The notes beneath the pieces were generated by a model that had not been told where the DNA came from, made no database searches, and saw nothing but the letters and a program-made list of their open reading frames with translations. From Lytechinus pictus (lineage: Eukaryota): a DNA stretch of 64,000 bases. The stretch's first letter is position 1. Each line of letters begins with the position of its first letter. The position numbers and the translations under genes are program-made. The stretch lies in NCBI RefSeq assembly GCF_037042905.1, contig NC_087250.1:8124001-8188000 (forward strand), read 5' to 3'. Below, piece after piece: positions 59,259 through 60,724 of this stretch.

Positions 59259-60724
59259 TTATATTTCATTGGTTTGTATGATGTTGTTTTGTGTCTGCAC
59301 ATTTTTCTTATTGCACTGTGTGTTTGCACCGAGACAAGTTCGCTTATGTCTACTGTAATGACTTCCATCGCTAAATGCCTTACCACATTGATCGCATACA
59401 TAGGGCTTCTCACCTGTATGGATTCGTTTATGTTTTGTGAGATGATCTTCACGATTAAATGCCTTACCACACTGATCACATACATAGGGCTTCTCACCTG
59501 TATGGATTCGTTTATGTTTTGTGAGATCATTAGATTGATTAAATGCCTTACCACACTGATCACATACATAGGGCTTCTCACCTGTATGGATTCGTTTATG
59601 TTTTGTGAGATTAGATTCATGATTAAATGCCTTACCACATTGATCACATACATAGGGCTTCTCACCTGTATGGATTCGTTTATGTATTGTGAGATTCTGT
59701 ATTTGATTAAATGCCTTACCACATTGATCACATGCATAGGACTTCTCACCTGTATGGATACGTTTATGTTTTGTGAGATTCTGTTCTTGATTAAATGCCT
59801 TACCACATTGATCGCATACATAAGGCTTCTCGCTTGTATGGATTCGTTTATGTTTTGTGAGATTACGTTCTAGATTAAATGCCTTACCACATTGATCACA
59901 TACATAGGGCTTCTCACCTGTATGGATTCGTTTATGTTTTGTGAGATCATTAGATTGATTAAATGCCTTCCCACATTGATCGCATACATAAGGCTTCTCG
60001 CTTGTATGGATTCGTTTATGTTTTGTGAGATCATTAGATTGATTAAATGCCTTCCCACATTGATCGCATACATAAGGCTTCTCGCTTGTATGGACTCGTT
60101 TATGTTTTGTGAGAGGATCTTCACGATTAAATGCTTTACCACATTGATCACATTCAAAGGGCTTCTCACCTGCATGGATTCGTTTATGTTTTGTGAGATT
60201 ACCTTCTAGATTAAATGCTTTAAAACATTGATCACATACATAGGGCTTCTCACCTGTATGACTTTGTTTATGTTTTGTGGGATTGTCTTCATTAGTACAC
60301 AATATTTCACCAACATGATTTTCTTTACCTTCTGAGATATTATCTTGAAATTCATTACATTGTTTATCAAAAATATCAGCATTCCTATTTGTTTTGATAT
60401 TTTCAATTTTACCTGCTAGGATTTCATGCGGTAGTATATTTTTATCAAAGCGTTTCATCTCAGCTTTACAATAATTTCTGATCTTATAGTTTGACACAGC
60501 ATTGCTACCATAATTTCTTATACCAGTGCTAGTGTTGATCTTCATCACTCTACTGAGAGCAGGTTTTTGTATTTCTCCTTTGATGAACTGTAGAATGTCT
60601 TCCTTTGGTGCGTCTGCTGGGGGGATGACACCACGATGACCATGTTTGTACTTGAGATGCCTTGCCAGGACCAAAGGGATAGCATAGAGTGATCCACAGT
60701 ACTCACATCTATAGACTCCAGAAT
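59259..60724 (-). CDS. PRDM9: Terminal exon of the PRDM9-like gene: post-SET C2H2 finger, spacer, 10 C2H2 fingers and 1 C2HC finger
   Basis: 494-aa ORF with CDQCGKAF-x5[14 protein letters not shown] repeats; acceptor at 60725-26. Confidence 0.93.

Follow-up and report, generated by a model that had tools for sequence, protein, structure and literature searches.

PRDM9, the gene that places recombination hotspots in vertebrates, is poorly explored outside them, as a preprint on cnidarians points out (bioRxiv 10.64898/2026.09.07.749791). Concerted evolution of its zinc-finger array, together with positive selection at helix positions -1, 3 and 6, has been described in rodents, primates, Nematostella, Lottia and Capitella, in a paper whose passages considered here bring in the sea urchin solely on account of a transcript from the germline (Oliver et al. 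2009, PMC2779102). The remainder of the protein is reported as conserved in echinoderms (Thomas et al. 2009, PMC2794550), and the N-terminus of sea urchin PRDM9 has been described as the ancestral form of KRAB (PMC8835667). Amongst 28 cnidarians, the share of finger diversity found at contact positions (PoD, defined below) ranges from 0.29 to 1.0 in full-length PRDM9, and several full-length paralogs sit on one chromosome in 10 of them; according to the preprint, multiple full-length paralogs bearing all hallmarks have been observed in cnidarians and in no further taxon, and the duplicates are mostly recent and post-speciation (bioRxiv 10.64898/2026.09.07.749791). Here we analyse a 64-kb segment of contig NC_087250.1 of the sea urchin Lytechinus pictus (hereafter the window), the minus strand of which carries an array of eleven C2H2 fingers. 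This array is probably the DNA-binding domain of a complete PRDM9-type gene, evolving as a coding minisatellite, and the locus bears on whether PRDM9 directs recombination outside vertebrates. Positions are coordinates in the window, and genome-wide searches covered an assembly of 811.7 Mb in 368 contigs.

Contact residues and backbone of the finger array

The array lies in a minus-strand open reading frame (59259-60764, 501 amino acids) in which eleven C2H2 fingers follow one another at an exact spacing of 28 residues, and Tandem Repeats Finder detects the same organisation at 59372-60292, with a period of 84 bp and 11.0 copies (score 1339, 89% matches). An original prediction made on this stretch had placed the array at 59330-60245; the correct bounds are 59319-60242 (924 bp), with the first finger, F1, at 60159-60242 and the last, F11, at 59319-59402. 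The residues that it gave for helix positions -1, +1, +2 and +3 are exact, and read, from F1 to F11, LEGN, REDP, QSND, QSND, LERN, QEQN, QIQN, HESN, QSND, REDH and DGSH. Translation also confirms its Lys at +6 in nine of the 11 fingers (the exceptions are Ile in F7 and Arg in F11), as well as the return of QSND in the non-adjacent F9, where the same 12-nucleotide cassette is found as in F3 and F4. The silent codons it singled out fare less evenly: amongst the 11 fingers, GGG for Gly is indeed confined to F3 and F4 and CAG for Gln to F9 and F10, but CAG also occurs at that Gln codon in two of 10 fingers of paralog B and one of five of paralog C, the two further gene copies introduced below.

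Per-codon and nucleotide-column statistics agree with the prediction that the backbone is nearly invariant and that diversity sits at -1 to +3. Across fingers 2-10, 10 of the 12 nucleotide columns encoding these four residues are variable, against 13 of the 72 elsewhere (Fisher P=1.9e-5). By the Nei-Gojobori method, the proportions of amino-acid-changing and silent sites that differ (pN/pS) are 0.488/0.261 at -1 to +3 and 0.031/0.189 in the rest of the unit, which gives a ratio of about 1.9 at the contact codons versus 0.17-0.21 in the backbone. The pattern is at its starkest between F9 and F10, where none of the 72 backbone bases differs and seven of the 12 cassette bases do; the backbones of F8, F9 and F10 are near-identical, with 0-1 differences. 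No two units amongst F1-F10 are identical, the smallest difference being 3 of 84 bases (F3/F4 and F4/F9). The concentration of diversity at -1 to +3 on a uniform backbone is real and far from chance.

Both edges of the array stand outside this pattern. The DGS-type terminal finger, shared with paralog B and with the orthologues of the sister species L. variegatus, falls outside the homogenised zone. Upstream of F1, the decayed finger of the original prediction does exist, as a half-finger without its Cys pair; it is an old feature rather than a recent decay, since both paralogs have it and so do the two orthologue models of L. variegatus.

Short-read assembly copes poorly with tandem repeats of 84 bp, and the array could in principle be a collapsed or chimeric version of a longer or different repeat. 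We find this hardly credible: the reading frame is intact through 11 units in exact 84-bp register, the array is just 924 bp on a 28.5-Mb contig, and the variants are distributed amongst the units as an orderly mosaic, not as noise.

To place these figures we compared 24 arrays of the genome: the window array, those of paralogs B and C, another PRDM gene on contig C8, and 20 genes without a SET domain (SET-less genes). PoD, the measure of Baker et al. and of the cnidarian preprint, is the share of amino-acid diversity found at -1, +2, +3 and +6, and was computed on all fingers found; for the other statistics of this comparison and the identity table, the three PRDM9-like arrays were taken without their terminal fingers and nothing else was dropped. 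Our finger pattern, which required five residues after the last His or Cys, found 12 fingers in B and 7 in C, and a looser pattern 13 and 8. The share of entropy at -1 to +3 is 0.61 in the window array, 0.57 in C and 0.49 in B, compared with 0.20-0.40 in the other 21 arrays; PoD is 0.412 (rank 2 of 24), 0.410 and 0.425 respectively, compared with 0.19-0.37; and mean backbone differences, out of 72 bases, are 4.9, 5.1 and 6.7, compared with 7.5-37.6. The three PR/SET-bearing, PRDM9-like arrays thus hold ranks 1-3 of 24 on each of the three measures, with the window array first for entropy share. The original prediction had held that its reading would fall if other C2H2 genes of the genome concentrated their diversity equally, and none of the 21 other arrays does so. 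It is by joining diverse contact residues to a uniform backbone that the PRDM9-like arrays stand out.

Position +6 departs from this diversity in the window array. Its entropy there, 0.47, is the lowest of the 24 arrays, with 1.79 in C and 2.48 in B; in the L. variegatus orthologues +6 is occupied by R, T and K, and one and the same cassette, QEQN, goes with K here and with T or A in B. Since paralogs and orthologues vary at this position, and identical cassettes are followed by other residues, the run of lysines is a private state of the window array and not a trait of the family. Most simply, the homogenised tract takes in the +6 codon in this copy, so that Lys has spread to nine of 11 fingers. 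In the canonical recognition code, a Lys at +6 goes with a preference for G at the triplet's 5' base, and the target predicted for this allele would therefore be G-periodic, of a (GNN)n-like form.

The gene carrying the array, its paralogs and its orthologues

The array closes a gene in which, from 5' to 3', an ancestral-KRAB-like exon (just off the window), an SSXRD-like exon, the PR/SET domain, a lone finger and the array follow one another (Table 1). All eight exons were located; the borders inside the window carry AG/GT sites, and codons split between exons restore the sequence of the orthologue. The first exon shares 95.7% identity with residues 1-47 of P0003, a protein annotated as PRDM9-like, and the exon with the acidic motif, which we take to resemble SSXRD, is conserved in all Lytechinus copies. 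The second PR/SET exon is identical to that of L. variegatus P0001 over 84 amino acids (100%), and in the last exon Pfam recognises zf-H2C2_2 (3.9e-102) and zf-C2H2 (2.2e-65) in 11 stretches each. The PR/SET domain has its closest solved structures in those of PRDM9 (6nm4, 4ijd and 4c1q), ahead of PRDM11, PRDM14 and PRDM1, and the named relatives of the gene are 'PRDM9-like' proteins of Lytechinus and Strongylocentrotus. Tyr is found at the aligned catalytic positions Y276, Y341 and Y357, in FGPYEG, EIYYRT and LLVYYG, the numbering using a chain offset of 194, which gives Tyr at all three chain positions; the three catalytic tyrosines are as listed in section 22 of the cnidarian preprint (bioRxiv 10.64898/2026.09.07.749791). 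In the intron between the last two exons there is a 20-bp tandem repeat of 2.3 copies (61152-61198).

Table 1. Exons and finger features of the PRDM9-like gene, in 5' to 3' order
Feature	Position	Strand	Support and remarks
Four further 5' exons, beyond the window end	L009 519-833, ~1497-1574, 2211-2345, 5418-5558 (first exon)	-	First exon ancestral-KRAB-like, matching PRDM9-like P0003
Exon with acidic SSXRD-like motif; gene's first exon inside the window	63412..63525	-	tblastn 92.5% over 40 amino acids to L. variegatus P0001, also P0003; AG/GT splice sites
Exon with zinc knuckle and first half of PR/SET, including Tyr aligned to human Y276	62699..62964	-	Pfam PF21549 1.9e-10; PRDM9 structures 6nm4, 4ijd, 4c1q, E ~1e-16; splice sites
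Exon with second half of PR/SET, including Tyr aligned to human Y341 and Y357	61777..62029	-	PF21549 2.5e-29, SET 4.5e-8; PRDM9 structures E ~1e-22
Final coding exon, with lone finger, spacer, half-finger, array of 11 fingers and stop codon (59259-59261)	59259..60724	-	Open reading frame, acceptor site, Pfam
Lone C2H2-type finger after PR/SET, C-x2-C-x12-H-x4-H	60642..60713	-	Translation; found too in paralogs and orthologues, conserved in P0001-P0008
Degenerate half-finger	60243..60326	-	Cys pair lost, helix end and TGEKP linker retained; paralogs B and C, P0001 and P0010 have a homologous stretch
Fingers F1-F10	59403..60242	-	Ten 84-bp units, homogenised backbones, variable -1..+3 cassettes; +6 Lys (AAA) in 9 of 10
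Terminal finger F11	59319..59402	-	C2HC ending, DGSH helix; 21-27 of 72 backbone bases unlike other fingers

Two more PR/SET-bearing copies, each with all eight exon types, lie on the same contig, C6, 7-12 Mb from the window gene (A, at 8.18 Mb): B at 20.17 Mb (L040 and L010) and C at 15.07 Mb (L041 and L012). In a maximum-likelihood tree of the non-array part, the window gene groups with L. variegatus P0001 (support 100/99) and B with L. variegatus P0002 (89/90), and C joins the B pair (99/98); as the tree pairs each with its own orthologue, the duplication that separated A from B and C is older than the split between L. pictus and L. variegatus. Short tandem partial copies of the zinc-knuckle piece, absent from the window gene, lie in the intron upstream of the first PR/SET exon in C (L012 4002-4414) and in B (L010 4514-4729).

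In L. variegatus, one contig carries two A-type gene models, P0001 with 7 fingers and P0010 with 9. They are ~98% identical before the array and share their first three fingers and the last, whereas the internal fingers differ; they may represent a tandem duplicate or uncollapsed alleles. A further model, P0009 (91 amino acids), appears to be an N-terminal piece separated from P0001. The arrays of P0001 and P0010 have nothing in common with the 11 fingers here beyond the LEGN cassette and the DGS-type terminal finger: of the seven cassettes of P0001 just one (LEGN) recurs in the window array, and of its seven whole helices (-1 to +6) none. The non-array exons, on the other hand, are 85-100% identical to the L. 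variegatus orthologue. With 11 fingers versus 7 or 9, and mostly different contact residues despite this identity, the array is not conserved between sister species, as compared through predicted L. variegatus proteins from one assembly; conservation across species, which the original prediction had named as telling against it, was thus not found. As a control with a conserved array, we sought the L. pictus counterpart of the SET-less L. variegatus protein P0008, but the best match reached 60% identity, and without a clean orthologue it offered no between-species control.

These comparisons bear on a simpler possibility, namely that the gene encodes a PRDM-type transcription factor of the ordinary kind, whose array is stable, with purifying selection on its backbones and a fixed, conserved specificity for each finger. 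The backbone amino-acid sequence is common to dozens of finger genes in the genome, so that uniformity at the protein level is not special by itself, and paralogs and species alike retain the terminal finger and the half-finger. Homogeneity at silent sites, however, is not accounted for in this way: backbone pS is 0.18 in the window array and 0.30-0.57 in 19 of the 21 control arrays, which have the same backbone. Nor would a stable array be expected to differ between orthologues in number (11 versus 7 and 9) and in nearly all of its helices. This explanation is already disfavoured, and we regard it as very improbable.

The wider finger repertoire of the genome deserves description in its own right. 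The lone finger and spacer of the last exon match 36 loci, mostly long SET-less finger genes with the same backbone. This large family, with a PRDM9-type lone finger and 8-42 fingers per gene, occupies C6 at 8.25-8.47 Mb (L018-L022 and L029), 13.8-14.4 Mb and 19.2-19.5 Mb, as well as C21, C17 and C10. In the 8.25-8.47 Mb cluster, a weak Pfam KRAB match lies 7-17 kb upstream in all six finger genes. The family looks like a sea urchin parallel to the vertebrate KRAB zinc-finger genes derived from PRDM9. Three of the SET-less arrays, L029, L034 and L020, contain higher-order repeats of several fingers, with 11, 13 and 8 identical pairs respectively and a five-finger block present three times in L029; such repeats are a sign of very recent multi-finger duplication. 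The other PRDM gene, on C8, has a PR/SET domain 56% identical to that of the window gene and 16 heterogeneous, irregularly spaced fingers; it exists as two near-identical copies, at 24.73 Mb (L014) and 22.79 Mb (L016), ~1.9 Mb apart, with equal E-values and one identical open reading frame of 97 amino acids.

Exchange between units and possible selection on contact residues

The data support a trade of sequence between the 84-bp units by unequal crossover or gene conversion with breakpoints within the units; the backbones remain nearly uniform, silent sites included, and the 12-nucleotide block for -1 to +3 behaves as a cassette shuffled amongst fingers. The distance between cassettes shows no correlation with that between backbones (Mantel r=0.02, P=0.40), and there is just a weak trend for backbones to differ more the further apart they lie (Mantel r=0.28, P=0.066). 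The QSND cassette sits on three backbones, those of F3, F4 and F9, that differ at 3-6 of 72 bases. Silent variants private to the window array are likewise spread over its fingers: TGC for Cys in F3, F4, F6 and F11, an AGC..CCT linker in F2, F3 and F5, and GGG in F3 and F4. This mosaic is what is expected of unequal exchange or conversion with breakpoints inside units. The original prediction had spoken of recent unequal crossover or gene conversion; exchange between units is supported by the uncoupling of cassette and backbone, by QSND on its three backbones and by the spread of silent variants, whereas 'recent' holds only in a relative sense, since no two units are identical.

The homogenisation it had described is also broader than a single array, for the near-uniform backbones are not private to it but common to the two paralogs. 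In a test for array-private concerted evolution, the fingers did not cluster by array, the observed contrast being reached in 868 of 2000 permutations. Mean backbone differences over 63 nucleotides are 4.71 within the window array, 4.29 between it and B, and 3.70 between it and C; backbone pS is 0.10-0.22 within and between the three PRDM9-like arrays and 0.31 or more against each of the 21 others, and pS in the non-array exons of paralog pairs is 0.11-0.33. (For these within- and between-array tests, as well as the parsimony and rate tests below, every PRDM9-like array was taken without its terminal finger, and B and C also without their conserved first 'HVC' finger.) Cassettes are shared too: all 12 bases of QSND recur in a finger of paralog C, all 12 of QEQN (F6) recur in two fingers of paralog B, and REDH is one base away both from REDP (F2) and from REHH of paralog B. 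Some of the diversity at contact sites thus stems from fingers pooled with the paralogs and did not arise in place.

The numbers for the fingers fit two models, one of continuing exchange amongst the three loci and one of a single ancestor array that was homogenised near the time of the duplications. Near-identical backbones in F8-F10, variants private to the window array and turnover between species show that exchange continued after the duplications. The window array shares its pool of fingers with two full-length paralogs on the same chromosome, and its finger number and contact residues both change between sister species.

Whether selection drives this turnover is a harder question. Parsimony on the finger tree assigns 0.5 silent and 18.5 amino-acid-changing changes to -1 to +3 in the window array, and 5.8 and 60.2 respectively in the three arrays pooled, with a backbone omega of 0.21-0.26 (deficit P ~1e-4 to 1e-5). 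The amino-acid-changing rate at these codons, taken against all silent sites of the unit, is raised 2.15-fold (P=0.033), and 3.39-fold when the three arrays are pooled (P=1.9e-8). It should be kept in mind that the finger tree is distorted by recombination and that conversion lowers the backbone counts. The original prediction had called for diversifying selection on DNA-contact residues: the rate test suggests it, and it is not proven, as the test within codons is not significant. At the level of sequence, the case for positive selection at the contact codons is suggestive and falls short of proof. Contact diversity may be maintained by selection for changing DNA specificity.

A neutral form of concerted evolution could produce much of the same picture. 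Under this scenario, conversion tracts would begin within near-identical backbone and end at the diverged 12-nucleotide cassette, which acts as a heterology block, so that backbones are homogenised and cassettes are not; the cassettes would drift under relaxed constraint, and a role at hotspots is not required. In keeping with it, the excess of amino-acid-changing changes within codons is not significant (window array P=0.21; pooled P=0.175), and pN/pS above 1 at contact codons recurs in 19 of the 21 other arrays, and is thus not specific. The cassettes are, moreover, reused rather than new, QSND and QEQN being shared with the paralogs, and +6 is homogenised despite being a contact site. Relaxed constraint alone, however, predicts a rate at -1 to +3 of about 1 relative to the silent rate of the unit, below the 2.15- to 3.39-fold observed, and the extreme pattern is found in three PR/SET-bearing genes and in no SET-less array. 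We judge the neutral scenario unlikely, although it retains some weight.

The lack of significance within codons and the high pN/pS of control arrays weigh against a PRDM9-type gene with a minisatellite-like array, and so do several further observations. Overall homogeneity is not distinctive, with one control array, L026, at a mean unit identity of 0.877, against 0.878 here. Three control arrays contain 8, 11 and 13 identical finger pairs, against 0 in the window array. A single, old homogenisation near the duplications also fits, with a within-array pS of 0.22 close to the paralog pS of 0.22-0.31. No Pfam family matches the 5' exons; the KRAB model gives no match on them at E up to 1, and genome-wide its matches are weak (19-23 bits) and fall at SET-less finger genes, none of them at this gene; Pfam SSXRD (PF09514) matches neither the exon 63412-63525 nor anything else in the genome. 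Lastly, the differences between species are drawn from predicted proteins, as noted above. Taken with the domain order, the PR/SET affinities and the finger statistics, these points leave a PRDM9-type gene as the probable reading of the locus.

Genomic surroundings, putative function and comparison with known systems

Elsewhere in the window, ZP-C, ZP-N, C-type lectin and three CUB domain matches at 11478-39889 (minus strand) suggest that a large gene of CUB, lectin and zona-pellucida domains adjoins the PRDM9-like gene. Open frames on both strands at 45306-45889 and 54226-54927 match pentapeptide and decapeptide repeat models, and are most likely simple tandem repeat DNA.

By homology with vertebrate PRDM9, the protein would aim PR/SET histone methylation at a DNA motif in meiotic cells, in the way that hotspots are placed in vertebrates. 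A search of the genome for zf-CW domains returned an exon on C14 (6963383-6963487; L042 8306-8713, minus strand) whose best solved relatives are ZCWPW1 (2e61, 1.4e-7) and then ZCWPW2; no PWWP domain was found near it, and the other zf-CW match in the genome belongs to a MORC gene. Beside the exon lies an open frame of the Toll-like-receptor type, with LRR and TIR domains (L042 3-2510).

Repeat shuffling and variable contact residues are the expected, already known signature of PRDM9; the part worth following is the set of three old full-length paralogs with a common finger pool. Our literature searches turned up no description of PRDM9 finger arrays in echinoderms, although the supplements of Oliver et al. 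and of the cnidarian preprint may list other invertebrate arrays. In Lytechinus, an echinoderm genus used as a laboratory model, three paralogs carry what looks like the complete set of PRDM9 sequence hallmarks, and a role in recombination thereby becomes testable. We put forward, as a tentative possibility, that three old, complete PRDM9 genes on one chromosome draw their arrays from a common pool by exchange across 7-12 Mb, that each is able to fix its own contact state, as with Lys at +6, and that all act as specifiers of meiotic hotspots. If true, this would mean PRDM9-directed recombination with several simultaneous specifiers, in a deuterostome outside the vertebrates that is open to laboratory breeding and editing.

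The likeness to vertebrate PRDM9 (Meisetz) extends to a putatively KRAB-related N-terminus, a putative SSXRD-like stretch, a zinc knuckle, the PR/SET domain, a lone finger and an array contained in one last exon, as well as to the three catalytic tyrosines, minisatellite-like units of 84 bp, diversity at DNA-contact positions, and differences in finger number and contact residues between sister species. The urchin copy differs in that +6 is nearly fixed as Lys, +1 is variable and no two units are identical; its 5' exons are out of reach of the Pfam KRAB and SSXRD models, and it is one of three full-length paralogs with a single common pool of fingers. Within the same genome, the SET-less ancestral-KRAB finger genes (for example L018-L037, and in L. 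variegatus the 'zinc finger protein 2 homolog' P0008) share its backbone, lone finger and KRAB-related first exon, and are partly clustered 70-290 kb from the window gene. They are distinguished from it by the absence of a PR/SET domain, by their 8-42 fingers, by backbones diverged at 7.5-22.6 of 72 bases and by a diversity that extends to more positions (PoD 0.25-0.37).

With the invertebrate arrays described from Nematostella, Lottia, Capitella and the 28 cnidarians, as far as the parts of those accounts drawn on here extend, the window array shares concerted finger evolution and hypervariable contact residues. On the same basis, its PoD of 0.41 falls within the range of the cnidarian full-length genes, with which it also shares the presence of several full-length paralogs on one chromosome. 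It differs from them, as portrayed in those sections of the preprint, in belonging to an echinoderm, in a paralog split that predates the split of the two Lytechinus species, and in finger backbones that do not cluster by array.

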